DNA of 32,000 nt from an uncultured Chloroflexia bacterium (lineage in GTDB: Bacteria; Chloroflexota; Anaerolineae; Anaerolineales; Anaerolineaceae), in the NCBI GenBank assembly GCA_963704755.1, contig OY969938.1, forward strand, positions 2,940,001-2,972,000, given 5' to 3'. The position numbers were made by a program, and so were the translations under genes. The notes beneath the pieces were generated by a model. That model was not told where the DNA came from. It saw only the letters and a program-made list of their open reading frames with translations, and searched no databases. Shown here piece by piece: positions 2,552 to 18,002 of the stretch (positions are counted from its first letter, which is position 1; the number at the start of each line of letters is the position of its first letter).

Positions 2552-2607
2552 TAAGTAATGAGGGATCAGGAATTTTTCCTGATCCCTCATTACTTATTAC
2601 TCATTAC
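2541..2607. terminator. long perfect palindrome / bidirectional terminator between convergent genes
   Basis: The 30-nt arm 2541-2570 is the exact reverse complement of 2578-2607. The loop is AATTTTT. It overlaps the stop codon at 2549-2551. Confidence 0.7.
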
Positions 2608-2611
2608 TCTT

Positions 2612-3571
2612 CTAGTACCAGACCCTGAACCAGGATTGGGTGGAGGCCAATTCACCGGCGGCCATGACCTGGACTTGCAGTTCGACCACCTGGTTGGGGG
2701 TCAAATCTCCGATGGGGAAAGACAGCACCGAAATGCCGTCCGAATTGGTATCGGGAGCACGGTAGGCATTGATCTGCCCGTCCTCGGTTTTGACGTATAC
2801 CCACACCTGGGCGCTGGCGACCGGTTTGCGGTACATGTCGTACACCACCACATAGACGGTTTGCTGGCTGTTGGCCGAGATCAGTGCGCGGCCGACGAAG
2901 GCGAACGCCTTGGGATTGCGCGGCTCACCCGGAGCGGCGCTGCCGGCCGGGTTGAGCAGGGGTGGGTCGTTGACCGCCAGGTCGAAGTAGCGCTTGCCCA
3001 GGTCGGTCAGTACCACGTGGCTGTCCAATTCTTTCTCGGGCTGCCATTCCATGCGCACTTTTTCGAAATACTGTACGTAGCGGCCTTCGCGTACTTCCAG
3101 GTCCGAGATCGGGTTGCCGAAGTTGACCGGGCCGTTATTGGCATCATAGAACTGCAGGAAGGCGTAACAAACGTTCTTGCCGGTAACCTGGAAGAAGCGG
3201 CAGGTCGGGCCATCGGTGGGCACCGGGGCCAGCGGTCCGGGGCCCGGGTACATCAGCTCACCCAGGTTGGCCACCGAAATCTGCTCGTCGCCGTTGATCC
3301 CCTTGACCAGGTCGAAGCGCGCCTTGGTGAAGTATTGCACGGTGGTGATCCCGCTGGAGGACATACCCTCGAACTCATCCGTGATCGGCAGCCCATAGAT
3401 ATCCAACGGGTCGCTCAAACTGTAGTATTGATTCAGGAAAGGTCCACTGACGGTATGGCCCGTGTTGAAATCAACCCAATTGTCGGTGGACTGGGCATGC
3501 CCGGAGGTAGCCAGACCAGCCGTGAAAATTAAGGCGATGAAGAAAAGGAGGATCCTGCTTTTTCCCCTCAT
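2612..3571 (-). CDS. secreted protein with LGFP-like repeats and C-terminal Ig-like region (family tentative)
   Basis: Signal peptide MRGKSRILLFFIALIFTAGLATSGHAQ. Two repeats of the form (Y/F)G-x-PI(T/S)D-E...VQYF-K-R. The opposite-strand ORF 2558-3532 is a shadow. Confidence 0.8.
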   Translation of the reverse strand: MRGKSRILLFFIALIFTAGLATSGHAQSTDNWVDFNTGHTVSGPFLNQYYSLSDPLDIYGLPITDEFEGMSSSGITTVQYFTKARFDLVKGINGDEQISVANLGELMYPGPGPLAPVPTDGPTCRFFQVTGKNVCYAFLQFYDANNGPVNFGNPISDLEVREGRYVQYFEKVRMEWQPEKELDSHVVLTDLGKRYFDLAVNDPPLLNPAGSAAPGEPRNPKAFAFVGRALISANSQQTVYVVVYDMYRKPVASAQVWVYVKTEDGQINAYRAPDTNSDGISVLSFPIGDLTPNQVVELQVQVMAAGELASTQSWFRVWY

Positions 3572-3579
3572 AGGTTTTA

Positions 3580-3608
3580 ATTATATAGCGTATAGATAAA
3601 AATTACAA
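3580..3608 (-). promoter_or_regulatory. putative promoter giving a leaderless or near-leaderless mRNA
   Basis: On the minus strand: TTGTAA (3603-3608), 17 nt, TATAAT (3580-3585). Only 8 nt separate the -10 from the ATG (3569-3571), and there is no SD. Confidence 0.45.
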
Positions 3609-3670
3609 TTCTTTCTAAGATTTCATCAGGATGATGACAATTTGTTAACCTGGGGGTGGTAGCTTTAGGC

Positions 3671-4060
3671 GTAGGGTGCAGTTGCGAGGCTGACATCTCG
3701 AGCCTGGTTAATCATCAGGATGTGAGCCGGTCCATGCGTGCCCGCAACGCACCATTGCGGCCTCGACGTAACGAGTTGCCTAAATCGGCGAATTTATTCG
3801 CCGCAACAACAAAACGAAACCTGCCCCGCATTCTTAAGCCCCTCTCCCGTTTCTGGGAGAGGGGTTGGGGTGAGGGGAAACAGGCGTGTAGCGTGTCACG
3901 GCACCGGCTGGACCGGAGGCCTCTCCCCAGACCAAGCCTTGCCCGTACCCCCGACGTTTTTGGCGAGCCCAGGCGTGTTGGTGCGTTGCGGGCGCACATG
4001 GATGGGCATTTTACCCGGTGATTTAACGGCATCATGGATATTGCCCGCAACCGCACCCTA
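3671..4060. repeat. MITE-like element with nested long inverted repeats
   Basis: GTAGGGTGCAGTTGCGAGGC (3671-3690) matches the reverse complement of 4042-4060. TCCATGCGTGCCCGCAACGCACCA (from ~3733) matches the reverse complement of ~3979-4002. The centre carries the CCCCTCTCCC/GGGAGAGGGG hairpin. Confidence 0.5.
3833..3877. repeat. hairpin module C copy (AGCCCCTCTCCCGyTTCTGGGAGAGGGGTTGGGGTGAGGG)
   Basis: 10-bp stem CCCCTCTCCC/GGGAGAGGGG. Near-identical copies at 20994-21033 and 21131-21170. Confidence 0.8.
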
Positions 4061-4149
4061 CATTTTGCCCGTGTGCCATTTGTACCCAATTTCCTCATAT
4101 CTTATAGCCTCACCCAAATCGAATCCACGTTAAAATAAAACCACCTAAA

Positions 4150-5865
4150 ATGAGCGATTTTAATTCCAACCCTGAAAAGAACGCCAAGATTGGCTATGTC
4201 GTCGGCGGGAGCCTGAAAGATTCCCTGGCGGTGCGCCTGACCGTGCCGCCCCAGGAAGTACAGGAGGGCAGCTTCGTGGTCATCGAGAGCGGCGACTGGC
4301 ATTTTTACGGCCTGGTCACCGACCTGCAGTTGGGCGCAACCGACCCGCGCTTTGCCGACGAGCAGTCCGAGGCGCGCCTGCCGGGCGGCCTGGACGGGCT
4401 GCTGCACGGCCAAACCCTGTACACCAACCTGCAAGTCCTGCCGGCCTTGATGCAGCAAACCGGCCCGGACCCGCTTTCGGATGCATACGCCGCCTGGCGG
4501 GAGGCCCACCCGGACGATTCCGAGCTGCAACCGCAGCCGGTCAAGACTGTGCCGGCCCATCACGCCGGTGTGCGCCTTTCGGATGCGGCCGACGTGGCCA
4601 ACATTTTCGGCAGGCCAGGCGGGGCCAACTACGTCATCGGCTATACCCGCGAGCAGGGCCACCCGGTCTGCATCGACCTGGAAAAGTTCGTCCAGCGCTC
4701 CTCGGGTATCTTTGGGGCCACCGGCACGGGCAAATCCTTCCTGACCCGCATCATCCTGGCCGGGCTGATCGACTACAATGCCGCCTCGGTGCTGGTCTTC
4801 GATATGCATAACGAGTACGCCTACGACGATGTGGCCTCCGACACGCGCGAGACCGTCCCCGGGCTGAAGACCAAGTTCCGCGCGCGCGTACGCGTGGCCG
4901 GGCTGGGCCGCAACGCCAGCATCCGCGGCCAATCCCCCGAGTTCAACCTGGAACTGGCCGAAGGCGATATCGTGCCCGAAGACATCGAAATGCTCACCCG
5001 CGAGCTGAACCTGCGCGAGACCACGCCTACTACCCTGGAGGCGCTCTGGCATTCCTTCCACGAGGATTGGTTCCACGAGTTCAAGGCCATGAAAGTGGGC
5101 AGCCTGATCGAGGATGACAGTGGCAAGAAGGTCCCGGCCCCAGACAGCGTGGCCTTTTGGGCCAACCGGGTGGGGGTCAATGTGGCCGCTGCCGAGGGCC
5201 TGCGTAACAAGCTCGGGCGCCTCTTCAACTTGAATTACCTGGTTGAAAAACCGGCCGCGGACGCCTTGAGCGAGATCATCCACGCCCTGGAACGCGGCCA
5301 GCACGTCATCCTCTCGTTTGGCGACCACGAGAACGACCTGGACTATTTGCTGGTGACCAACCTGCTCACCCGCCGCATCCGCAGTGCCTGGGAGGACCAG
5401 ACCAACCGCTTCCGCTCGCACCCCGAAAAAGAAGCGGAACCGCGCCCGCTGGTGGTGGTCGTCGAAGAGGCTCACAAGCTGCTCAACCGCGAGATGGCCG
5501 CCCAGACCGCCTTTGCCAGCATTGCGCGCGAGATGCGCAAATATTACGTCACCCTGCTGATTATCGACCAGCGCCCCTCTCAGATCTATGACGAAGTCAT
5601 GTCGCAGTTGGGCACGCGCGTCACCGCCTGGCTGGGCGACGAGGCCGATATCGGCGCGGTACTTTCCGGCCTGGCCGGGCGGGATGCGCTGCGCGGGATG
5701 CTGGCCCGCTTGCAGCCCAAGGAAGAAGTTCTCTTGTTGGGCTGGGGCGTCAAAATGCCGATCCTGGTCCGCTCGCGGCGCTATGACCGGGCTTTTTGGC
5801 AGGAAATTCAGCCGGCCCGGACCACCCGCAGCGCCGAAGAAGCTGCCCGCGACCTGTTTGGTTAA
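4150..5865 (+). CDS. HerA-family (DUF87/COG0433-like) ATPase
   Basis: N-terminal HAS-barrel-like IGYVVGGS...GSFVVIE. Walker A GATGTGKS followed by VFDMHNEY. Walker B LVVVVEEAHKLL. LLIIDQRPSQI motif. Confidence 0.9.
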   Translation: MSDFNSNPEKNAKIGYVVGGSLKDSLAVRLTVPPQEVQEGSFVVIESGDWHFYGLVTDLQLGATDPRFADEQSEARLPGGLDGLLHGQTLYTNLQVLPALMQQTGPDPLSDAYAAWREAHPDDSELQPQPVKTVPAHHAGVRLSDAADVANIFGRPGGANYVIGYTREQGHPVCIDLEKFVQRSSGIFGATGTGKSFLTRIILAGLIDYNAASVLVFDMHNEYAYDDVASDTRETVPGLKTKFRARVRVAGLGRNASIRGQSPEFNLELAEGDIVPEDIEMLTRELNLRETTPTTLEALWHSFHEDWFHEFKAMKVGSLIEDDSGKKVPAPDSVAFWANRVGVNVAAAEGLRNKLGRLFNLNYLVEKPAADALSEIIHALERGQHVILSFGDHENDLDYLLVTNLLTRRIRSAWEDQTNRFRSHPEKEAEPRPLVVVVEEAHKLLNREMAAQTAFASIAREMRKYYVTLLIIDQRPSQIYDEVMSQLGTRVTAWLGDEADIGAVLSGLAGRDALRGMLARLQPKEEVLLLGWGVKMPILVRSRRYDRAFWQEIQPARTTRSAEEAARDLFG

Positions 5866-6991: not shown

Positions 6992-7408
6992 ATGTTCCAT
7001 ACCATAATCGTTGTTGGTAACGTAGGTCGCGATCCGGAAATGCGCTATACCCCCAGTGGGCAGGCGGTAACCAGTTTTTCAGTCGCAACCAGCCGCCAGT
7101 ACACCGGTGCGAACGGCCAAAAAGTCAAAGAGACCATCTGGTTCCGCATTTCTGCCTGGGGAAAACAGGCTGAGATCTGCAACAATTACCTGCACAAAGG
7201 CAGCCGGGTCCTGGTCGAGGGCCGGCTGGTTGCCGATCCATCCTCAGGCGGGCCGCGTATCTGGAATCGCTCGGATGGTACCCCTGGAGCTTCTTTCGAA
7301 ATCAGCGCCGGTACGGTGCGCTTCCTCTCTCCGCGCGGCGAAAGTGAAGGCGAATTTGGTGGTGAAGAGGCCACCGAAGCTGATGCCGGGGACGATATTC
7401 CTTTCTAA
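6992..7408 (+). CDS. ssb: single-stranded DNA-binding protein
   Basis: VGNVGRDPEMRYTPSGQAV...WFRISAWGKQAE OB-fold. Acidic C-terminal tail ending DDIPF. AGGAG at 6983-6987. Confidence 0.95.
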   Translation: MFHTIIVVGNVGRDPEMRYTPSGQAVTSFSVATSRQYTGANGQKVKETIWFRISAWGKQAEICNNYLHKGSRVLVEGRLVADPSSGGPRIWNRSDGTPGASFEISAGTVRFLSPRGESEGEFGGEEATEADAGDDIPF

Positions 7409-7420
7409 ACCAGGCAAATC

Positions 7421-7750
7421 ATGGAAGAAAAACCTGTACTACCCAAACCGGGGCTGTCGATGGAGCTGCCGGACGACCTTCAGCCGGTATATAGTAACGT
7501 CGCCCGCATCTTCCACACGCCTTCCGACTTTTTAATCGATTTTGCCCGTGTCCTGCCCGGACAGGCTTCAAATCCGGTGCTGGGACGGATCATCATGTCG
7601 CCTTTGGGCGCCAAACTATTCCTGCGCGCGCTGACTGAAAACGTGGCCCGCTTCGAAAGCCAGTTCGGAGAAATCAACATCCCGCCTGGCGATACCGGCC
7701 TGGCCAACGATTTGTTCAAACGCGTGCAGCCCCCCAATTCGAGTGAATAA
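7421..7750 (+). CDS. DUF3467 domain protein
   Basis: YSNVARIFHTPSDFLIDFARV...SPLGAKLFLRAL pattern typical of DUF3467. 12 nt after ssb. Confidence 0.75.
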   Translation: MEEKPVLPKPGLSMELPDDLQPVYSNVARIFHTPSDFLIDFARVLPGQASNPVLGRIIMSPLGAKLFLRALTENVARFESQFGEINIPPGDTGLANDLFKRVQPPNSSE

Positions 7751-7756
7751 ACCCTG

Positions 7757-8422
7757 ATGGAAGACCTTACCCAGTTCAACGAAGATGTTCATGTTTATTT
7801 CGAAGCGCTCAACCAGGCCCGTGACAAAGCCTTACTGCAAGCCCGGCAGCTAACCCGCCTTTCTGCGCACACCATCCGCGCCATCCACCGCAGCGAAGTC
7901 GATGTTGCTCACGAGACGCTGACCCAGGCGCGCGGGGTGGCGAACGCGATGCAAGCCATGCTGTCCGAATATCCCCAGCTCTTGTATGCAGGTTATACCC
8001 AGGATGCGCTGAAAGAATTTTCCGAAGCCAGCCTGACCTGCGCGATTATCGAAGATAAGCCCCTGCCAACCCCCAGCGAACTCAATGTGGATTATGCCAA
8101 TTATCTCAATGGGCTGGCCGAGGTGGTCGGGGAACTGCGCCGGCGTTGCCTGGATATCCTGCGGGCCGGCTATTCGGCCGAGGCCGAGCGCCTGTTGAAC
8201 TGGATGGATGAGATCTATAACGTGCTGGTCACGGTAGATTATCCCGACGCCCTGACCAATGGTTTGCGCCGCCAGACGGACCTGGCCCGCGGCATCATTG
8301 AGCGCACGCGCGGCGACCTGACCATCAGCATCCGCGAAGACCGGCTCCAGCAAGCGCTCAACCGGGCCGTCCATGACCTGGCCAGCGAGGACAATTTGCA
8401 TGCGGACAATCCGCGCGTCTGA
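7757..8422 (+). CDS. translin-family nucleic-acid-binding protein
   Basis: All-helical. YLNGLAEVVGELRR...DALTNGLRRQTD motifs resemble COG2178/translin. 6 nt after the DUF3467 gene. Confidence 0.7.
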   Translation: MEDLTQFNEDVHVYFEALNQARDKALLQARQLTRLSAHTIRAIHRSEVDVAHETLTQARGVANAMQAMLSEYPQLLYAGYTQDALKEFSEASLTCAIIEDKPLPTPSELNVDYANYLNGLAEVVGELRRRCLDILRAGYSAEAERLLNWMDEIYNVLVTVDYPDALTNGLRRQTDLARGIIERTRGDLTISIREDRLQQALNRAVHDLASEDNLHADNPRV

Positions 8423-8639
8423 ACTGGGTTCGTATTTGTACTGCCACCGGGCCTGGTGGTATCAGCAGCAAGGGATCGAATCGGAGAACCTGGGCGAAAT
8501 GACCGCCGGCAGCGCCTTCCACCTGCAGCATGGGCAGAAGGTCTTGACGGCCCGGCTGCTGCGCCTGGCGGGTTGGCTGCTGTTATTGGCTGCCCTGGTC
8601 GCAGGCGCGGTGGCTTTGACGCTGCTGCTGTTGAGGTAA
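8400..8639 (+). CDS. Cas4-like (DUF83) nuclease, N-terminal fragment with TM helix
   Basis: ASELGSYLYC(15)HRAWWY is the N-terminal Cas4 cysteine motif, followed by a hydrophobic helix. Ends at TAA 8637-8639, in the same frame as the next ORF. Confidence 0.6.
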   Translation: MRTIRASELGSYLYCHRAWWYQQQGIESENLGEMTAGSAFHLQHGQKVLTARLLRLAGWLLLLAALVAGAVALTLLLLR

Positions 8640-9176
8640 TTGGGTTTGGCGTTGCTCGGCTTTTTTCTGGCGGCGCTGTTCCTGCTCTTGTTGGGAATCG
8701 TGCTGTTGTGGCAAGGCCGGCGAGCACAGCGCAGCAGCGGGCTGCCATCCGGGCGGGTGATTTACTCCGACCCAAAAATTTTGGGTGCGCCCGAGCGCCC
8801 GCTCTTCGACGGTGAGTATCACCTGACCGGCAAGCCGGACTATCTGGTTGAAGAAGCCGGTGCGGTCATCCCGGTAGAGGTCAAGAGCCGCTGGGCGCCA
8901 TCCCAGCCCCACCCGGGGCATATCTACCAACTGCTGGCCTACTGTCTGTTGGTGGAAAAGACCAGCGGCAAGCGCCCGCCCTATGGCATCTTGCGCTACC
9001 GCAACCGCTCGTTCGCCATAGACTACACCCGCGAGGCCGAGCGTGACCTGCTGGCACTGCTGGATGAAATTCAGCAGGCCGGCGTACGCAAAGAACAGGA
9101 TCGCTCGCATGACGAGCCGGGTCGCTGCGCCCACTGTGGCTATCGCTCGATGTGCGACCAGCGATTAACAAGATAA
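8640..9176 (+). CDS. Cas4-like PD-(D/E)XK nuclease core, C-terminal fragment (TM helix + RecB-like motifs + CxxCx5C)
   Basis: GKPDYLV...VIPVEVKS (D...ExK), YQLLAY (QxxxY), CAHCGYRSMC. In frame with 8400-8639. GAGG (8633-8636) precedes TTG codons at 8640 and 8646. Confidence 0.65.
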   Translation: MGLALLGFFLAALFLLLLGIVLLWQGRRAQRSSGLPSGRVIYSDPKILGAPERPLFDGEYHLTGKPDYLVEEAGAVIPVEVKSRWAPSQPHPGHIYQLLAYCLLVEKTSGKRPPYGILRYRNRSFAIDYTREAERDLLALLDEIQQAGVRKEQDRSHDEPGRCAHCGYRSMCDQRLTR

Positions 9177-9222
9177 GCTGTGATGCGGTCGCTTCGCAGA
9201 CCGCATCACAGCTTATCTTGTT
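9167..9222. terminator. 24-bp perfect palindrome / bidirectional terminator at island boundary
   Basis: 9167-9190 is the reverse complement of 9199-9222. Loop is GCTTCGCA. It contains stop codon 9174-9176. TTTTG follows. Confidence 0.7.
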
Positions 9223-9232
9223 TTGTAACCAA

Positions 9233-9775
9233 CTAATTCGATGAATGATGGGGCAAATTGCTTACCGAAAGGCCGGACTGGGACAGGATATTCTCATTCA
9301 TATTTAATACAAACACTTTGGAAGTTAACCAGTTTGTTTTTTGTTTAAAAACATTCCCTTCGACAGACTTTTTTACTTTTTCGCGTTTTGGAAGATACGA
9401 AGGAATGTCTTGTTCAAGCCATATCACGACCTTAATTTCAGAATTACATAAAGCATGGAAATATTCGTTTATATTAACGGATGGATCAGAATTGCGGTAA
9501 GCGCCCAATAAACCGGCTACCGTATCTCTGACTTTTTGCCCAATTTCAATAGCTAAGTCCCCACTAAAAACTCGTTTTTGATTTTCGATCCTGTACCCTC
9601 GGAAATCTTTCGCTTCGATTAAGAACAAATCGTTTTCTCTCAATCCCAAGAAATCGATCGCTTTGGTCCCTTGAAGCCTTCCCACTCCTTCGCGATATAG
9701 CTCCGTGTCGTCATATTTAATTACTTGCCAGGTATCGTCAAAAGAAAAATGAAGGTTCCCTTCGTCGAAGTCCAT
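9233..9775 (-). CDS. small PD-(D/E)XK-like putative nuclease (no recognised family)
   Basis: AID(41)FLGL-x-LFLIE(54)AK(56)D motif. AT-rich codon usage. Starts 9 nt after the upstream ATPase stop, with a G6 SD-like run. Confidence 0.7.
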   Translation of the reverse strand: MDFDEGNLHFSFDDTWQVIKYDDTELYREGVGRLQGTKAIDFLGLRENDLFLIEAKDFRGYRIENQKRVFSGDLAIEIGQKVRDTVAGLLGAYRNSDPSVNINEYFHALCNSEIKVVIWLEQDIPSYLPKREKVKKSVEGNVFKQKTNWLTSKVFVLNMNENILSQSGLSVSNLPHHSSN

Positions 9776-9784
9776 TGTCCCCCC

Positions 9785-10825
9785 TTATTCAGTTAAAAAT
9801 TGATTTGCTTCTCGATCATAATGGGCAGCAAATTCATCCAGGATGGGATTCCGATCGATTTCTGCCAGCGTTCTGCCTGATTCAAACATTACCCCAGCTT
9901 TTCGTTTGGGCTGATATAGGGCAAAAAATTGGATATCCAGATCTTTATCGTATTCAGCGGCAAGGGAAAGCTCCTGGCTTAATAGAAAATCGTGGGTAGC
10001 AATAAATATTTGCATTCCGGAAGAAGCCAATAATTTCATTGCTTCGACAATGTCAACAATCATTTTGGGGTTTAAATTTGCTTCGGGTTCATCCCAAAAC
10101 AGGAAGCCATTTTGAGTAAGGGACCCATTATTCAAAAGGTAAAGTAATTCGGCTATTTTCCGGTAACCTTCCGAGACAAGCGGAGCTTCGAGCTTTGCTT
10201 CCGGCAAGCGAACATAAAATGTTTGTCCTTCCTGGCTAACACTTGCCCCCGCTAATGCCTTTTTTAAGGGCTCGCCCAGGCGTTTGATTTCCTCCAATTT
10301 TGGACCACGCATAGGCGCCGCTGAAAGCGCAACCGCCAGGTCGTAATAAGTCTGATCGAAAGAGGATTCGCGTGTTTGATATGCGGCAATAAAGCCGGGG
10401 TAAGTAGATAGAAACTCATGAACCGGGAGAAATACAGACTTGTCCGGGGAAGGGAGCTTGTCAAATTCAACGCTTACACTGTTTCTTGCATTTATAGTAA
10501 TTTCGAAGCGGTCGTTGTCGTAGCCTAAGGTTAATTTTCCGGTATTATTTCCTACCTGATGGCGGACCAGGCGGCCTATTTTGTTGGGTTTAAATATACC
10601 TGAAAGATTTTCTTCGCTGATTAACGCAATCTTATTTTTGTCCTCAATTTGGTCGCGCTGTGCAACTTCACAAATTTTCAGGGCGGCATACATCGCCTTC
10701 ATAAGGTGTGTTTTTCCGGTTGAGTTGGCACCGATAAATACGTTAATTCCTGGGTTAAATTGAAACTGGATTGGTTCGGCAAAAGCAGTGAATTGTTCCA
10801 GGACGATTTCGGTTACCTTACCCAT
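9785..10825 (-). CDS. ABC/SMC-type ATPase (AAA_21/AAA_15-like)
   Basis: Walker A GANSTGKT, signature-like VSEGYRK, Walker B FLFWDEPEANLNP, H-loop IATHD. AAGGAG 9 nt upstream of the ATG. Confidence 0.85.
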   Translation of the reverse strand: MGKVTEIVLEQFTAFAEPIQFQFNPGINVFIGANSTGKTHLMKAMYAALKICEVAQRDQIEDKNKIALISEENLSGIFKPNKIGRLVRHQVGNNTGKLTLGYDNDRFEITINARNSVSVEFDKLPSPDKSVFLPVHEFLSTYPGFIAAYQTRESSFDQTYYDLAVALSAAPMRGPKLEEIKRLGEPLKKALAGASVSQEGQTFYVRLPEAKLEAPLVSEGYRKIAELLYLLNNGSLTQNGFLFWDEPEANLNPKMIVDIVEAMKLLASSGMQIFIATHDFLLSQELSLAAEYDKDLDIQFFALYQPKRKAGVMFESGRTLAEIDRNPILDEFAAHYDREANQFLTE

Positions 10826-10873
10826 TGATTGGCACTCCTTATGGTCTCAATTCACGATACGGAGTTTTCTATA

Positions 10874-10902
10874 ATTTTAATGGTTAATTAGGATGGCTTG
10901 AA
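10874..10902 (-). promoter_or_regulatory. putative promoter of the ATPase/nuclease cassette
   Basis: On the minus strand: TTCAAG (10897-10902), 17 nt, TAAAAT (10874-10879). Confidence 0.35.
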
Positions 10903-11241
10903 AGAAAACAAAATGGTATGCTGTAGATAAGGCTTTTTGCAATTTTGCCTCAAAGATCCGAGCATAAAACGATAAATCAAGTTTACAATGATTAATGATA
11001 TCATAAGTCAACCTGTAAGCCAGGTAAACTCAAAGGGTGTTGAAAAACATCCGGATATTTTAGAAATTTGGGTATATATGAAAGGGCAGCGAAGTCGCTC
11101 CTCTATATATACCCGGTCTAGTCGTTGAAAATCGACTTTTTCAAAACGCTCAAACTCACATGGTGCAAAAAGGGCAATTATCCAGCGGTAGCATTATTTT
11201 TCGGAAATCTTTTTTACCTTAATGACGACGGAGTGGCTTTT

Positions 11242-11271
11242 TCGACACCCTAACAACCAGGCTGGTATAAT
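11242..11271 (+). promoter_or_regulatory. putative extended -10 promoter giving leaderless nadK mRNA
   Basis: TCGACA (11242-11247), 18 nt, TGgTATAAT (11263-11271). The ATG at 11280 is only 8 nt after the -10, with no SD. Confidence 0.45.
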
Positions 11272-11279
11272 ATTTCAAT

Positions 11280-12161
11280 ATGGACCCTTCGACGAATCCT
11301 CCGCGCAGGTTTGCAATTGGCTGGCAACCGACCATTAAAGCAGCCCAGCAAGAGGCGGAGAAAATTGCCAGGTACCTGCAAGAACGCGACCTGAACGTAC
11401 AGGTGGCCTCGATCGAGCAAAATGGGGTACATTCCTCCCTGGAAAAAGGCGGGTATGACCTGTTGATCGCTCTGGGAGGCGACGGCACCATGTTACGGGC
11501 TGGCCAGCTCTGCGGCCCGCTGGGGATTCCCATCCTGGGAATCAATCTCGGGCATTTCGGTTTCCTGACCGAAGTCAGCCAGAATGAATGGCCTGAAATC
11601 ATGCCACGTTTGCTGGCTGGCGATTATCGCCTGGAAGACCGTATGATGTTGAAAGCCGAGCATCTCCGCGATGACCAGGTGCGCGGAACCTATACCGCGC
11701 TTAATGAGGTGGTGGTTTGCCGCGGTAAAGTGGTGCGGCCCATCCGCCTGCAGGCCCTGGTGGATGGCTATTTGCTGGCCAATTACGTGGCCGACGGGTT
11801 GATCGTGGCCACACCGACCGGGTCTACGGCTTACTCCCTGGCAGTCGGTGGGCCAATTCTGCCGCCCGACCTGCGCAATATATTGATCACTGCCGTGGCG
11901 CCGCATCTTTCGGTGGACCGGGCCGTGGTCCTTTCAGAAGGCTCTGTGGTGACGATTATGGCTCGCACCAATCACCAGGCCGTGTTCAGTGTCGATGGCC
12001 ACGAGCCGGTCGAACTCGAAGACGGCGATTGTGTCAAGGTCGAGTCGATCCCCGAGAGCGTTCACTTTGTCCGCTTCCAGGATTATGGCTATTTTTACCG
12101 TAACCTGACCAATTATATGGAACAAAATCCTTCCACCAAGAATCATCATGATCGAAGATAA
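11280..12161 (+). CDS. nadK: NAD(+) kinase
   Basis: GGDGTMLRA and NLGHFGFLTE motifs. PTGSTAYSLAVGGPI. Confidence 0.95.
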   Translation: MDPSTNPPRRFAIGWQPTIKAAQQEAEKIARYLQERDLNVQVASIEQNGVHSSLEKGGYDLLIALGGDGTMLRAGQLCGPLGIPILGINLGHFGFLTEVSQNEWPEIMPRLLAGDYRLEDRMMLKAEHLRDDQVRGTYTALNEVVVCRGKVVRPIRLQALVDGYLLANYVADGLIVATPTGSTAYSLAVGGPILPPDLRNILITAVAPHLSVDRAVVLSEGSVVTIMARTNHQAVFSVDGHEPVELEDGDCVKVESIPESVHFVRFQDYGYFYRNLTNYMEQNPSTKNHHDRR

Positions 12162-12687: not shown

Positions 12688-14444
12688 ATGCTCCTGGAGC
12701 TGCGGATCGAGAATTTTGCCATCATCCAGTCCTTGGAACTGGAATTCAAGGCCGGGTTGACCACCTTTACCGGTGAGACCGGCGCCGGTAAATCGATCAT
12801 TCTGGATGCCATCGTCGCCCTGCTCGGCGGTAAAGCCGATACCACCTTTATTCGCGCCGGGACGGATCGCGCCAGCCTCGAGGCGGTATTTTCCATCCCG
12901 CAGACCAACCGCCAGGCGGTGCTGGATTTTCTGGCGCGGGAAGACCTTTTGGATGATGGGGAAGATGTGACCCTGAGCCGCGAACTGCGCCAAAATGGCC
13001 GCAGCAGTGGACGGATCAACGGGCGCAGCGTGGCGGTAACTTTGATGCGCGAATTGGGAGAATACCTGGTGGATATCCACGGCCAGGCCGAGCACCTTTC
13101 GCTGCTCAATGTGCGCCAGCATTTGCGCCTGCTGGATGAATTTGCCGCGGACCGGCCGGCCCTGGAGGCCTATCAGCGTGTGTACCGCGAACTTCGGGGT
13201 GTGCAGAAGTCCCTGGCAGGCCTGCGCCAGAGCGAAATGGATGCTGCCCGCAAGACCGACCTGCTGGAATACCAGGCCCAGGAGATCGAGAACGCGATGC
13301 TCAAGCCGGGTGAGGAAGATGAACTCCGTTTGGAGCGGTCCCGCCTGGCGAACGCGGAGACCCTGGCGTCATCCGCGCAGCAGGCCCTGGCGCTGCTGGA
13401 CGAGGGCAGCCCGGAGGCCCCCGCGATCAACGAGCTGCTTGGGCAGGCGGCCGCGGCTCTGGAAGTATTGGCTCGCATCGACACGACCCAACAGGCCCTG
13501 GCCGACCAGGTTGCTGTGATGAATGAGACCCTGGCCGAGTTAGGCCGGGAGCTCAGCGATTACCTGGAAACGATCGAATTCAACCCGAAGCGGCTGGAGC
13601 AGGTGGAAGAACGCCTGGATTTGATCCAGCGGCTCAAGCGCAAATATGGCGGCAGCCTGGAAGCGGCCCTGGAATTTGCCCGTTCGGCGCGGGAAGAATT
13701 GGATACGATTGCCCACGCTACCGAACGGATCGCCGAGCTGGAAGTCACGCGAGAAAGAATTGCTCAAAGACCTTGGCCAGCGTGGCCAGGAGCTGGCGCA
13801 GCAGCGCCGCCAAGGCCGCCGGAGAATTGTCTCGCAGGGGGTCGAGCGCGAGTTGGCCGACCTGAGCATGGCCGGGGCGCAATTCGCGGTGGATATCCAA
13901 TTCCGGCCGGATAGACTCGGGGCGCCCATGCCGGATGGTCAGCGGGTCGCATTCGACGAAAGTGGCCTGGACCAGGTCGAGTTTCTTAATTGCGCCCAAC
14001 CCTGGCGAAGGGCTAAAGCCGCTGGTCAAGATTGCCTCCGGCGGCGAAACCTCGCGCTTGATGCTGGCGCTCAAGAAAGTGCTGACGGAAGCAGACTCCA
14101 TCCCCACCCTTATCTTCGATGAGATCGACCAGGGCATGGGTGGGCGGGTTGGTACGGTAGTGGGTGAAAAATTATGGCTGTTAGGCCGCCAACACCAGGT
14201 GTTATGTGTTACCCACCTGCCGCAATTGGCTGCTTATGGTGACCAGCATTATAGTGTCCGCAAGCGGGTCGAAGGCGGCCGCACCAGCACGGTTGTGGAG
14301 CAAATGGCCGGTGAAAACCGGCTGGTCGAACTGGCCCAGATGTTAGGCGCCGTTACCCAGGCTAACCTCAATGCTGCCCGTGAAACGCTGAAAGGTGCAC
14401 GAATGCGGGCGGGCGAAATGGACGCAGGTCGCTTGACCGGATAG
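12688..14444 (+). pseudogene. recN: DNA repair protein RecN, reading frame broken at least twice
   Basis: N-terminal LELRIENFAII...GETGAGKSIILDA in frame 1 to ~13744. The middle part (REKELLKDLGQ...LDQVEF) is in frame 2. The C-terminal part (LIAPNPGEGLKPLVKIASGGETSR...IFDEIDQGMGG...THLPQLAA) is in frame 0 from ~13983. Confidence 0.85.
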
Positions 14445-14479: not shown

Positions 14480-16615
14480 GTGGGGATGAACGCTGAAAAT
14501 GCAAAGCTTCGAATCCAACTGCTCGGCCCGGCCGTAGTGTTATACGGCGACCAGCCCGTTCACGTGCAGCGTAGGGTGATGCGCGCCATATTGTTCTACC
14601 TGGCTTGCCAGACGGAACCGGTCGGGCGGTCCACTTTGATGGACCTGCTCTGGCCAGAAGAAGACGAAGAGCAGGCGCGCCGGCGTTTGCGGGAAGTGCT
14701 CAGCAAGCTGCGCGCGCAATTACCCAGCCCATCGATGATCGTGGCCGAGCAAGATTACGTTCACCTGGATATGGAGCAGGTCTACGTGGACGTGCTGGAG
14801 TTTCAGGCCCTGGTCGATCAGGTCCATCTCTACCTTCAGCGCCAGGGCAACAGCCCGCTGCCGGAGAGCATCTACCAACAGATGTTCAAGGCGATCAATT
14901 TGTGGCGCCGGGCCGAGTTCGTTGCCGGAACGAACCTGCCTTCCAGTGAGGGGATCGACCGCTGGTATGTCATGACCAGCCAGTCTTTGTATTACAACCG
15001 CCAGGCGATGCTGGAGACATTGGCGCGCCATTCGGCCGTCTCCGGTGATATGGACATGGCCGTGTTTTGGGTTCGGCGAGCCATTGAGACGGATGAGGAT
15101 AACCCGGACCTGTACTATCTGCTGGTTAACTGGCTGCGCAATATGGGCCGGCGCATCGAGGCGCTCAAGGTGTGCGACCAGGTCCGCGCCAAATTCCATG
15201 ATCTGGGCGAAGAGGTTCCGTCCGCGCTGGTTGCCCTGTGCCAGCAGGTCCACGAGGAAGCCGCCCAGCCGGAAATGGAACGGCAGGTGCCCTGGCACAA
15301 CCAGTTTACCCTCCAGGTACCTTTCGTTGGCCGCAAAGAGGTCCTTTCACAGCTCAGGCTGGCCTTGCAGCGCGGTGGCCTGGAGTTGATCTGGGGTGAA
15401 GCCGGCGCAGGCAAGAGCCGCCTGACCTTCGAGTTTTATCAGTCCCTGGAGCCGGCGCCGCGGCTGTTGTTCGCGGCCGGGCATATCAACCAGATGGATT
15501 TGCCCTACCAACCCTTGATCGATGTGCTGCGTCATTCGGTAACCATTACCGAATGGCAGCAGTTGGACGTGGTTTGGGCGAACATCCTCACCGAATTGGT
15601 ACCGGAATTGACCTCCCTCCGCCCGGGCACGACCAGCCCGCCCCGCGATACTGTACCCGCTAACCGGCGCCAGAGGATCTCGGAAGCTCTTCTGCAAATC
15701 TTGCATATCACAGCCCGGCGCCAAAGGCTGCTGTTCTTCCTGGACGATGCCCAATGGTGCGACCCGGATACCCTGGGCGTGCTGGCCTATCTTTTAGATA
15801 ACAGCCTGTTCAACGAGCGGGGCCTGCTGGTGATCGCCGCCCGCCCGGAGGAGACCAACCCCGATTTGAAGCAGTTCACCAAACGTTCCCAAATGGGTTG
15901 GCGGATCCACCACAACCAGGTGGATTTGTTCACCCGGGAGGAGATTGCCGAGCTGTGCCGCCATGTGATCGGCAAGCCGCCCCGGCTGGCCCTGGTGGAT
16001 CAATTGGCCCGGGATACGGGCGGGAACCCCCTGTTCTTGCTGGAAATTCTGCACACGCTGCTGGACTACAACTTCGATCCCGACGACCCGCGTCACAGTG
16101 ACCATCTGCCCCTGGCCTTTGGCATCCTGAAGGTGGCCGAGGAACGTTTTCGCTTGTTGGATCCCCAGGTCAGTGAAGCCCTGGAAGTGGCAGCGGTGAT
16201 TGGGAACACCTTTACGCCCGAATTGTTCGCGGCGGCGGCTCACCTGGAACTGGACCAGGCCGTCGTGGTGTTGGAAGAGCTGGAGCGTATTCGCCTGGTC
16301 AAGCCCAGTGACCAGGACGATTATCCCGGACCGTACACCTTCATCCACGAAAAAATTCGCGAAGTCATGCTCTACGAGATGAGCCAGGTGCGCCGCAGGT
16401 TCCTCAACTTGCGGGTGGCCAAGGCCATCGAGCAAACCGGCCAGGATACGAAACCTAAGGCTGTCCTGGTGGCCGGGTATTACGAGGCCGGCGGCGATAT
16501 GCACCAGGCGTTTCGCAACTGGATGGTTGCGGCGGATTATGCTCGCGACCGGCTGGATCGAGCCCAGGCAACCCTGGCTTATCGGCGGGCCGAAATCGAC
16601 TTTGATGCGCATTGA
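14480..16615 (+). CDS. SARP/BTAD-family regulator fused to STAND (AAA_16/NB-ARC-like) ATPase
   Basis: N-terminal winged-helix LRIQLLGP...RRVMRAILFYLA. BTAD region. Walker A GEAGAGKSRL. Walker B LLFFLDDAQWCD. Confidence 0.85.
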   Translation: MGMNAENAKLRIQLLGPAVVLYGDQPVHVQRRVMRAILFYLACQTEPVGRSTLMDLLWPEEDEEQARRRLREVLSKLRAQLPSPSMIVAEQDYVHLDMEQVYVDVLEFQALVDQVHLYLQRQGNSPLPESIYQQMFKAINLWRRAEFVAGTNLPSSEGIDRWYVMTSQSLYYNRQAMLETLARHSAVSGDMDMAVFWVRRAIETDEDNPDLYYLLVNWLRNMGRRIEALKVCDQVRAKFHDLGEEVPSALVALCQQVHEEAAQPEMERQVPWHNQFTLQVPFVGRKEVLSQLRLALQRGGLELIWGEAGAGKSRLTFEFYQSLEPAPRLLFAAGHINQMDLPYQPLIDVLRHSVTITEWQQLDVVWANILTELVPELTSLRPGTTSPPRDTVPANRRQRISEALLQILHITARRQRLLFFLDDAQWCDPDTLGVLAYLLDNSLFNERGLLVIAARPEETNPDLKQFTKRSQMGWRIHHNQVDLFTREEIAELCRHVIGKPPRLALVDQLARDTGGNPLFLLEILHTLLDYNFDPDDPRHSDHLPLAFGILKVAEERFRLLDPQVSEALEVAAVIGNTFTPELFAAAAHLELDQAVVVLEELERIRLVKPSDQDDYPGPYTFIHEKIREVMLYEMSQVRRRFLNLRVAKAIEQTGQDTKPKAVLVAGYYEAGGDMHQAFRNWMVAADYARDRLDRAQATLAYRRAEIDFDAH

Positions 16616-18002
16616 GCAGGACCTGGCCCCGGCCACGATTTACGAGATGTATTCGAGCTGGGCCAATATGGCTCTGGATATGCTGGACATTCCCCAGGCC
16701 GAGGCCTGTTACACCAGTTTACTGCGCATTGGCGAACAACATAATTACCCCTTGTTGATCGGTAGCGCCTACAGCGGTATGGCCAGGGTTGCCGGAATAC
16801 AATCCAAGCCCCGGCTGGCTCTGGCTCATCTGGACCATGCCATCTCGTTCCTGCGATTGGCGGATAATTTGTGCGAGCATATCGAGGCGGTCAACCGCCG
16901 GGCTACCATGCTGGTGCAATTGTTGAAATTTCGCGAAGCTGCCCAGGCGATCGAGACGATTTTGCCCCTGGAAGTACAGCCGGACGATCCATCCGCCAAT
17001 CATGCCCTGGTCGAAGCATACAACCAGCTTGGGCGTATTATGACTTGCCTGGGCCGGCCCAGGGAAACACGCAAATATGCCTTGCTGGCCCAGGCGGTCA
17101 GCCGGGCGTTCAACCATCCCGGCTGCCAGGCTCAGGCGCTCGCGAACCTGGGAGCGGCCGACTATTTGCTGGATGATTATCTCCAGGCAATCGATGAAAC
17201 CGACCAGGCCATTCAGCTTGCCGGGCAAGGACAGGATTGGCGGCTGCGCGGCTATCTCTATCCGCTGCGGGCGCAAAACTTGATTTGCCTGGGGCGCCTG
17301 GATGAAGCCTGGAAAGACGGCCAGGAGACGCTGCGGATTGGCACCGAATACCGGTTCCCCGAAAGTCTTTCGCGCGGGTATTGTGTATTAGGGGATATTT
17401 TCTTCGTACTGCGGGATTTTCCCAACGCGGTCAACGCTTTCCGCAAGGGTTTGGACGTGACCTTCGACCACATTAGCACCATGCAATGCCTGTTCCGGCT
17501 GGGCGGAGCTTTGGTGCAAAATGGCCAGGCAGAAAATGGGTTGACTTTCTTGCACCAGGCGGTTGAACTTTCGGCTGAGACTGGCCTGGAGATGGTCCAT
17601 CTCCCGGCTGAGTTTGGGCTGGCGCTGGCCCAGGCGACCATCGGTAACCTGGCAGAGGCCATTCCCCTGGCCGAAAAGGCCGCGAAAGGCCTGGCAGAAC
17701 GGGGTGGGAATGCCTTGCAGCAAATTACCCATTGGGTCCGGCTGGCGGCTGCCCTGACGAATGCCCCAGAGACCGTTCCCGAATACGTCCGGGCGGTGAC
17801 TGGATATGGCGGTTGGGAACAAAACGCCTGGATCGAGCTGGCCGGGCTGGAATACGCTGCCCACCTGTCTGGGACGGATGGGCAAAAAAGCGAATACCGC
17901 ATACGTATCGCGGAGGTGCTGGCACGGTTGGGCAAAAGCATTACCCAGCCGGATATTCTGCCGGCTTTCCAGCGCTTACAGGAATCGCTCTATACGATCT
18001 AG
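16605..18002 (+). CDS. TPR-repeat protein, probably the C-terminal sensor part of the preceding STAND regulator
   Basis: Multiple TPR-like helical pairs. ATG 16605 overlaps the upstream stop (16613-16615). Deleting one T at 16601-16603 would fuse the two ORFs. Confidence 0.7.
   Translation: MRIEQDLAPATIYEMYSSWANMALDMLDIPQAEACYTSLLRIGEQHNYPLLIGSAYSGMARVAGIQSKPRLALAHLDHAISFLRLADNLCEHIEAVNRRATMLVQLLKFREAAQAIETILPLEVQPDDPSANHALVEAYNQLGRIMTCLGRPRETRKYALLAQAVSRAFNHPGCQAQALANLGAADYLLDDYLQAIDETDQAIQLAGQGQDWRLRGYLYPLRAQNLICLGRLDEAWKDGQETLRIGTEYRFPESLSRGYCVLGDIFFVLRDFPNAVNAFRKGLDVTFDHISTMQCLFRLGGALVQNGQAENGLTFLHQAVELSAETGLEMVHLPAEFGLALAQATIGNLAEAIPLAEKAAKGLAERGGNALQQITHWVRLAAALTNAPETVPEYVRAVTGYGGWEQNAWIELAGLEYAAHLSGTDGQKSEYRIRIAEVLARLGKSITQPDILPAFQRLQESLYTI

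Follow-up and report, generated by a model that had tools for sequence, protein, structure and literature searches.

Here, we describe a two-gene insert in the chromosome of an uncultured Chloroflexia bacterium (Anaerolineales; Anaerolineaceae) that, judged by homology, is a distant member of HEC-02 and a real defence cassette of an already named kind. The analysed stretch, hereafter the window, comprises 32,000 nucleotides (nt) of contig OY969938.1 (assembly GCA_963704755.1, positions 2,940,001 to 2,972,000, forward strand), and all coordinates below refer to it. The insert encodes an ABC ATPase of 346 amino acids (aa), followed by a 180-aa protein resembling the NERD family, and we consider it highly probable that the two genes constitute a horizontally acquired anti-phage cassette of the HEC-02 family, with an inferred mechanism in which the ATPase gates a nuclease. 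An original prediction, made from the DNA letters alone, had described an AT-rich island with two minus-strand genes as a candidate uncharacterised defence module. Both genes were found as described (Table 1), while the boundaries that it gave to the island (9225-10902) bracket the two open reading frames (ORFs) only loosely.

To our knowledge, almost no defence biology has been done in the Anaerolineae or in Chloroflexota at large. The cassette opens no new category; it is a clean and well-delimited example of a defence system that is validated and mechanistically unsolved, and its value lies in annotation and in the comparative material that it contributes towards the HEC-02 mechanism.

Homology of both proteins to HEC-02

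Both proteins are matched over essentially their full length by HEC-02 profiles of PADLOC-DB. The ATPase aligns with HEC-02A (PDLC04213) at E = 1.3e-88 (residues 3-344 on profile positions 2-334 of 337), and the small protein with HEC-02B (PDLC04228) at E = 2.3e-31 (residues 1-161 on profile positions 1-187 of 199); six more HEC-02 models in the same database match the small protein, and no model outside HEC-02 does so. We also compared the pair with its counterpart from Dickeya dianthicola NCPPB 3534 (WP_024108366.1 and WP_024108365.1), using the sequences in Table S2 of Payne et al. In BLASTP, the ATPase is 35% identical to the Dickeya HEC-02A over 326 aa (E = 3e-59), and the small protein is 35% identical to the Dickeya HEC-02B over 119 aa (E = 7e-18). 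Alignment by hhalign of the small-protein family profile with the Dickeya HEC-02B returned a probability of 99.8% (E = 2e-27, 167 columns), placing the D...ExK residues of the family in register with the Dickeya motif IEVKD.

HEC-02 was defined as an ABC ATPase with a NERD, i.e. PD-(D/E)xK, partner carrying a (D/E/Q)xK motif (bioRxiv 10.1101/2024.01.29.577857). In the same study, at least two phages plaqued orders of magnitude less well on E. coli that expressed the Dickeya pair, and both genes were needed for this protection; how the ATPase senses infection, and the respective roles of ATP binding and hydrolysis, were left open by Payne et al. (10.1101/2024.01.29.577857). The name stands for Hma-embedded candidate 02, reflecting how the family came to light, although such candidates also occur outside Hma (10.1101/2024.01.29.577857). 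The system is included in PADLOC-DB v2, whose model does not demand embedding in Hma. We found no paper later than that of Payne et al. that resolves the mechanism.

The cassette is built like HEC-02: an ABC ATPase (about 345 aa) comes first and is immediately followed by a NERD-like protein (about 170-180 aa) with a (D/E)xK motif. It differs in host (Chloroflexota, as opposed to Proteobacteria for the tested pair, at 35% identity), in the arrangement of the ORFs, which lie 9 nt apart here and overlap in the HEC-02 comparison pair, and in its setting, being solitary among housekeeping genes rather than embedded in Hma, no gene of which was found in the window. The original prediction had stated that the pair could not be assigned to any named system, and had allowed that a match to one would leave the module real but not novel. 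The full-length HEC-02A and HEC-02B matches, together with the homology to the Dickeya pair, mean that the claim of novelty fails on these terms, because the system was already named. The proposed defence function is, in turn, supported by the HEC-02 homology and by the phage protection shown for the Dickeya pair.

A compact ABC ATPase without a coiled coil

The ATPase carries the complete ABC/SMC-type motif set that had been read from the sequence, comprising Walker A (G32-K38, GANSTGKT), the signature (S218-K223, VSEGYRK), a Walker B/D-loop segment (F241-P253) in which Walker B reads FLFWDEPEANLNP, and the H-loop (H278, ATHD). In an alignment of 95 homologues, the key residues of these motifs are invariant: N28, G32, N34, G37 and K38 in the Walker A region, G220 and K223 in the signature (SEGYRK), D245, E246 and P247 in Walker B, and further N252, P253, Q272, H278 of the H-loop and D279. 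Invariant residues of the family thus supply targets for mutagenesis (K38, E137, G220, K223, D245, E246 and H278).

Among Pfam families, AAA_21 matches the protein at E = 1.2e-19, with AAA_15 also detected and SMC_N more weakly. Its AlphaFold2 model is of high confidence (mean predicted local distance difference test score, pLDDT, 92; predicted template modelling score 0.91), and Foldseek searches with this model retrieved SMC heads, Rad50 and PtuA of Septu and retron systems at E-values from 1e-14 to 1e-11 and a probability of 1.00, with TM-scores of 0.5-0.6 to these SMC/Rad50/PtuA structures. As predicted from the motifs, the model and the Foldseek matches, the protein is compact, lacks a coiled coil and belongs to the SMC/Rad50 class of ABC ATPases, as opposed to the AAA+ type. 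The fold matches agree with the earlier placement of this ATPase in the class used by Septu PtuA.

This structural likeness to PtuA raises the question of whether the pair might be a divergent member of another named system built on an ABC ATPase (Septu, PARIS, Gabija, AbiL, Menshen or PD-T4-4). Secondary PADLOC matches point in the same direction: the next best named system for the ATPase is AriA of PARIS (1.9e-20), and AbiLi, NsnB, GajA, PtuA and PD-T4-4_A follow. These alternatives, however, score at least 60 orders of magnitude below HEC-02A, and their matches are mostly confined to conserved nucleotide-binding segments; moreover, the partner matches HEC-02 models only and belongs to none of the HNH, TOPRIM/DUF4435 and helicase types. 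We therefore regard the likelihood of such a membership as practically negligible.

The individual comparisons are instructive in this respect. As in Septu, the gene for an SMC/Rad50-like ABC ATPase is immediately followed by that of a small nuclease, and PtuA structures (8eea and 8sux) are among the best structural matches (E of about 1e-12 to 1e-13). PtuB, however, is an HNH protein, whereas the partner here is PD-(D/E)xK/NERD-like and has no Pfam HNH match, and the PADLOC match to PtuA is weak (2.6e-9) and partial. With PARIS, the cassette shares the combination of a sensor ATPase and a separate nuclease effector, AriA being the best match outside HEC. The PARIS effector AriB, in contrast, is a TOPRIM/DUF4435 protein, the small protein matches neither of these domains, and there is no evidence here of tRNA targeting by the effector. 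Because partner fold and hidden Markov model scores differ, membership of PARIS or Septu is excluded. Gabija consists of GajA, in which an ATPase is joined to TOPRIM (approximately 580-690 aa), and of GajB, a UvrD-like helicase. The ATPase described here is 346 aa long and lacks TOPRIM, its matches to GajA are confined to the P-loop segment at the N-terminus, and the insert contains no helicase gene.

The small protein and its predicted nuclease core

The small protein falls below the Pfam thresholds. It does so for both DUF6661 (E = 0.001) and NERD (E = 0.0067), the latter scoring 17.4 bits against a gathering threshold of 22.1 and covering only model positions 34-70. Since both matches are sub-threshold, it is understandable that the original prediction recognised no family for this gene. 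Across the family the relationship is easier to see, with 52 of 96 members matching DUF6661 (best 6.4e-10) and 17 of 96 matching NERD at E <= 0.01 (best 4.9e-5), and the family is closer to DUF6661 than to NERD. A literature search returned no papers on DUF6661. NERD itself (Pfam PF08378; Grynberg and Godzik 2004) includes the nuclease modules of PglW (type 2 BREX) and of DndF, and is treated in the literature as an endoDNase effector in defence contexts. At E <= 0.001, the small-protein family has 1,872 representatives among 1.84 billion clusters at 50% identity, nearly all of them standalone proteins of 175-200 aa.

Eight residues are the same in all of 96 homologues (F12, W16, D41, E54, K56, R68, K81 and D84) and can serve as targets for mutagenesis of this subunit. 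In the AlphaFold2 model (pLDDT 93.4), strands 42-46 and 49-57 are followed by helix 62-71; D41 lies just before the first of these strands, and E54 and K56 lie within the adjacent one. The spacing D41-x12-E54-A-K56 in a strand-strand-helix context, noted from the letters, is hence found in the model as well. NERD proteins likewise carry D...(D/E)xK on adjacent strands, and the layout of D41, E54 and K56 is likely that expected of a PD-(D/E)xK core, as judged from the motif and the model. Consistently, the weak Foldseek hits of the small protein are rich in PD-(D/E)xK enzymes (Hjc, BstEII, MUS81, SfsA, Can2, R.BspD6I and endonuclease I). The family profile gave only chance-level matches (E >= 0.06) when compared with PDB sequences.

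Strict pairing and patchy distribution

When species-representative genomes were scanned with the small-protein family, 64 loci were found, and look-ups of exact protein sequences enlarged this set. Of 67 loci, 64 have an ATPase homologue immediately upstream on the same strand, and the remaining three are cut off by contig ends less than 200 nt from the small gene; the order with the ATPase first is accordingly kept in all 64 loci in which it could be tested. This answers the question, posed with the original prediction, of whether the two genes are conserved as neighbours. The similarity of the two proteins to the window pair is also correlated across loci (r = 0.80, n = 50). The hosts belong to Chloroflexota, Planctomycetota, Myxococcota, Desulfobacterota, Verrucomicrobiota, Lentisphaerota, Bacteroidota, Acidobacteriota and Deinococcota, and further include large sulfur Gammaproteobacteria and one Selenomonadaceae bacterium. 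Because the pairing is strict in 64 of 64 loci from about ten phyla, the case for HEC-02A and HEC-02B forming one machine is strengthened.

In most genomes looked at, the cassette is solitary, its neighbours are unrelated from one genome to the next, and its distribution across phyla is patchy. We rejected the possibility that it is typically phage-borne, as the pair was found on only 1 of 2.9 million viral contigs. A shift in composition is common to nearly all copies: in 55 of 58 other genomes (L002-L068) the GC content of the cassette lies below that of its flanks. The difference averages -7 points and nowhere exceeds 5 points in favour of the cassette, with flanks that range from 35% to 75% GC over the 58 loci. 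This suggests either frequent transfer of HEC-02-like cassettes or selection for an AT-rich composition.

In Candidatus Leptofilum (L002, 6440-8555; 6.36-Mb contig), a NUDIX hydrolase gene overlaps the start of the HEC-02A-like gene by 1 nt, and the two genes may be co-transcribed; the other loci looked at do not have this arrangement.

Horizontal acquisition at an otherwise conserved site

The composition of the locus is strongly foreign to its surroundings. Segment 9177-11279 has a GC content of 41.3%, compared with 58.3% elsewhere in the window (z = -6.5), in close agreement with the values of 40% and 60% that had been estimated by eye, and every other 2.1-kb stretch of the window has at least 49.6% GC. 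Likewise, GC at third codon positions (GC3) is about 41% in both cassette genes versus 60-77% in ten neighbouring genes. The cassette is flanked by nadK and by a convergent gene for a Cas4-like (PDDEXK_1) protein.

An empty counterpart of this site was found in a related Anaerolineae metagenomic contig (L072), whose Cas4-like protein and NadK are 71% and 65% identical to those of the window; the NadK of the window is at most 68% identical to that of its nearest relatives (Bellilinea and other Anaerolineae). The gene order of L072 runs SSB, DUF3467, Translin-like, a 79-aa gene, Cas4-like, nadK, a 174-aa gene, recN, AAA_16-TPR and mutS2, without the cassette, so that the Cas4-like stop codon lies 24 nt from the nadK start. 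Since L072 retains the same flanking order without the cassette, the comparison shows, at the level of gene order and alignment, that segment 9166-11260 was inserted between the Cas4-like gene and nadK in this Anaerolineae (Chloroflexota) chromosome. In a three-way alignment including L072, the extra DNA extends from about 9166 to about 11260, and GCTGGTATAAT, the conserved -10 element of nadK (11261-11271), follows immediately to the right. The two Bellilinea relatives (L070 and L071) carry different genes upstream of nadK and are uninformative on the empty site. The horizontal acquisition suggested earlier from the position between housekeeping operons, convergent with a Cas4-like gene, is thus corroborated by both the foreign composition and the empty site.

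The same comparison bears on the idea that the pair performs a housekeeping role in DNA repair, as a miniature analogue of Rad50-Mre11/SbcCD or of RecF/RecN belonging to the SSB/Translin-like/Cas4-like/RecN neighbourhood. Rad50 and SMC heads are among the best structural matches of the ATPase, and the flanking genes function in DNA metabolism, both of which would fit such a role. L072, however, keeps the whole neighbourhood without the cassette, the composition of the cassette is strongly foreign, its occurrence is patchy across phyla with unrelated neighbours each time, and the coiled coil found in Rad50 and SMC is missing from the ATPase. On these grounds, we find a repair function extremely unlikely.

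As for how the insert arrived, it contains no integrase or transposase gene, and the window contains no tRNA gene. Copies of the hexanucleotide TAACAA, the sole feature found at its two edges (Table 1), make a weak candidate for a target-site duplication that is too short to prove it. In its two coding regions alone does the insert resemble other loci at the nucleotide level; its hairpin and its 454-nt upstream spacer are unique to this genome. The comparison with the empty site shows the minimal mobile unit to be the coding regions alone. The non-coding parts of the insert were rejected as components of a mobile unit on finding no similarity to them in any other locus.

Acquired DNA could also persist as an inactive relic that is neither expressed nor functional in the present host. 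In favour of this are the three apparent frameshifts in genes within 7 kb, the strongly non-host codon usage (GC3 of 41% against 60-77%) and the fact that the promoter-like match upstream matches at only 9 of 12 positions. Yet both ORFs are full length relative to their homologues and keep all invariant residues of their families, and the ATPase gene is preceded by a good ribosome-binding site (AAGGAG), which makes a relic very unlikely.

Proposed mechanism and competing readings

ABC ATPases in general dimerise through their heads around ATP. PARIS has a sensor ATPase that releases a toxic effector, a model that we borrow for the inferred HEC-02 mechanism, and Septu is an ATP-regulated nuclease complex of PtuA and PtuB. 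PARIS and Septu are the nearest mechanistic precedents. In the mechanism that we propose, the ATPase would act as an ATP-gated sensor and regulator, probably as a head-to-head dimer with two ATP molecules held between Walker A and the signature, and would hold or license the NERD-like subunit. Infection would be signalled by a cue, for example a protein of the phage, the ends of its DNA or intermediates of replication, which would change the state of the ATPase. The PD-(D/E)xK subunit would thereupon cleave DNA, either destroying phage DNA directly or killing the infected cell (abortive infection).

Several observations weigh against this interpretation. Identity to the sole tested representative is only 35%, and the demonstrated phenotype is that of the Dickeya pair. 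The nuclease activity of HEC-02B is a prediction for every member of the family. The PD-(D/E)xK fold of the small protein, likely as it is, rests on the motif, the sub-threshold NERD match, the weak Foldseek hits and the structural comparison of Payne et al., and Foldseek searches with its model returned nothing at E <= 0.001 (best E-values 0.024 in PDB and 0.007 in BFVD). The cassette lies outside any defence island here, its neighbours being housekeeping genes. Finally, three apparent frameshifts nearby mean that either the assembly or the locus has flaws, although both ORFs of the cassette are intact.

Small, mobile and solitary modules often behave as addiction systems, and a selfish toxin–antitoxin module without an antiviral role is accordingly the next reading to be weighed. 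In it, the NERD-like nuclease would be a toxin restrained by the ATPase, and the cassette would be maintained because its loss harms the cell. The cassette is indeed small, mobile, AT-shifted and mostly solitary, and the Pfam entry for AAA_21 reads 'putative AbiEii toxin, Type IV TA system'. This description line, however, is a label and not an assignment: in Pfam, neither protein matches AbiE-type families beyond the generic AAA_21 domain, and no gene for an AbiEi-type antitoxin is present. Addiction as the sole role is at odds with the protection by several orders of magnitude that the Dickeya pair confers and for which both genes are needed. Restraint of a toxin is, moreover, compatible with defence, as in PARIS, and would be more of a sub-mechanism than a true alternative. 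We judge a purely selfish module to be very improbable.

A further reading retains the defence role and changes the mode of action, with the pair working unlike any ABC-ATPase defence system so far. For example, a dimer of SMC-like heads without coiled coils might clamp phage DNA ends and load a divergent PD-(D/E)xK subunit, or the effector might act on a substrate other than DNA. The trigger, too, could be a different one in the Chloroflexota clade, which is 35% identical to the tested pair. We entertain this possibility because searches of PDB and BFVD gave HEC-02B no significant structural neighbour, yet we hold it to be unlikely, if worth keeping in mind. The HEC-02-type cassette with an ATPase-gated nuclease remains our preferred interpretation.

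Locus layout and non-coding elements

Table 1. Coordinates and strands of the cassette genes and of associated elements in the window.
Feature	Position	Strand	Remarks
HEC-02A-type ABC ATPase, 346 aa	9785..10825	minus	ORF intact
HEC-02B-type NERD-like PD-(D/E)xK protein (predicted), 180 aa	9233..9775	minus	ORF intact; putative catalytic residues D41, E54, K56
Spacer, 9 nt, GGGGGGACA	9776..9784	minus	Between ATPase TAA and small-gene ATG
Non-coding AT-rich stretch 5' of cassette	10826..11260	minus	~37% GC
Palindrome	9167..9222	.	Arms 9167-9190 and 9199-9222, 24 nt each, 100% complementary; 8-nt loop
Left edge of insert, first TAACAA copy	9166..9171	+	L072 homology ends
Right edge of insert, second TAACAA copy	11251..11256	+	L072 homology resumes at GCTGGTATAAT

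The two genes, which form one operon, had been described as translationally coupled. The TAA-GGGGGGACA-ATG junction is real, and the G-run within it is likely the ribosome-binding site of the second gene, but coupling was deduced from the 9-nt spacer and the ORFs do not overlap here; in relatives, the same junction consists of overlaps of 1-4 nt (in several of them) or of short gaps. The ribosome-binding site of the ATPase gene lies at 10840-10835, and a promoter scan found a promoter-like TTTACC-17-TATGAT at 11028-11000 (a match at 9 of 12 positions) upstream of the cassette. ORFs lying wholly within the upstream stretch are all at most 46 aa long, and this stretch does not resemble, at the nucleotide level, what lies upstream of the cassette in other HEC-02-like loci. 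It harbours a perfect 10-nt inverted repeat, GGGTATATAT / ATATATACCC, with a 25-nt spacer (11070-11114). This repeat, not conserved among other HEC-02-like loci, might function as an operator or form a small hairpin.

The 24-bp palindrome reported earlier proved to have fully complementary arms. It sits between the cassette and the convergent Cas4-like gene, with its left arm overlapping the last codons of the latter, and is absent from the empty site of L072. Because a run of T follows it on the plus strand, it looks like the terminator hairpin of the Cas4-like gene, perhaps serving the cassette too. A dispersed repeat was ruled out, as a search of the window returned only its own two arms. 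In Rfam, region 8900-11500 gave only sub-threshold microRNA hairpin models that match the palindrome and are meaningless for a bacterium.

On the other side of the cassette, the nadK promoter that had been placed at about 11240 corresponds to a promoter-like site, TCGACA-18-TGnTATAAT, at 11242-11271. The extended -10 region of nadK, TGGTATAAT (window 11261-11282; L072 6982-7003), ends 8 nt before the ATG in both genomes, and, as so short a distance cannot accommodate a ribosome-binding site, the nadK mRNA is probably leaderless. The insertion has replaced the upstream half of the predicted nadK promoter, because the -35-like TCGACA (11242-11247) lies inside the inserted DNA.

Neighbouring genes

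Beyond nadK, recN (12688-14420) is split over three frames, whereas L072 encodes an intact RecN of 583 aa. Frame 1 encodes residues 1-351 (12688-13740), frame 2 residues 354-437 (13748-14002) and frame 3 residues 431-576 (13983-14420), and the two frameshifts reflect either indel errors in the assembly or a real pseudogene. The adjacent gene for an AAA_16-TPR (BTAD-type) regulator (14486-17993; approximately 1173 aa in relatives) is interrupted by a frameshift near 16593, which divides it into one ORF of 711 aa and one of 491 aa. Three frameshifts in recN and this gene within about 4 kb suggest homopolymer errors of long-read sequencing in the assembly.

On the opposite side, the cluster at 6992-9176, also kept in L072, encodes SSB, DUF3467, a Translin-like protein (24.8 bits in Pfam, just sub-threshold), a protein of 79-88 aa without a Pfam match and the standalone Cas4-like PD-(D/E)xK protein. 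No CRISPR-cas genes were present among the window ORFs examined, and these five genes may form a module for the processing of DNA ends. Further away, a gene for a HerA-like ATPase (HAS-barrel and DUF87; 4150-5865) has partial matches to PADLOC HerA models, down to 2.5e-31, and is preceded by a 324-aa ORF (2558-3532) without a Pfam match at E <= 1e-5. The composition of this region (2558-5865) is host-like, and it could be either a housekeeping pair of the HerA-NurA type or a HerA-associated defence module.

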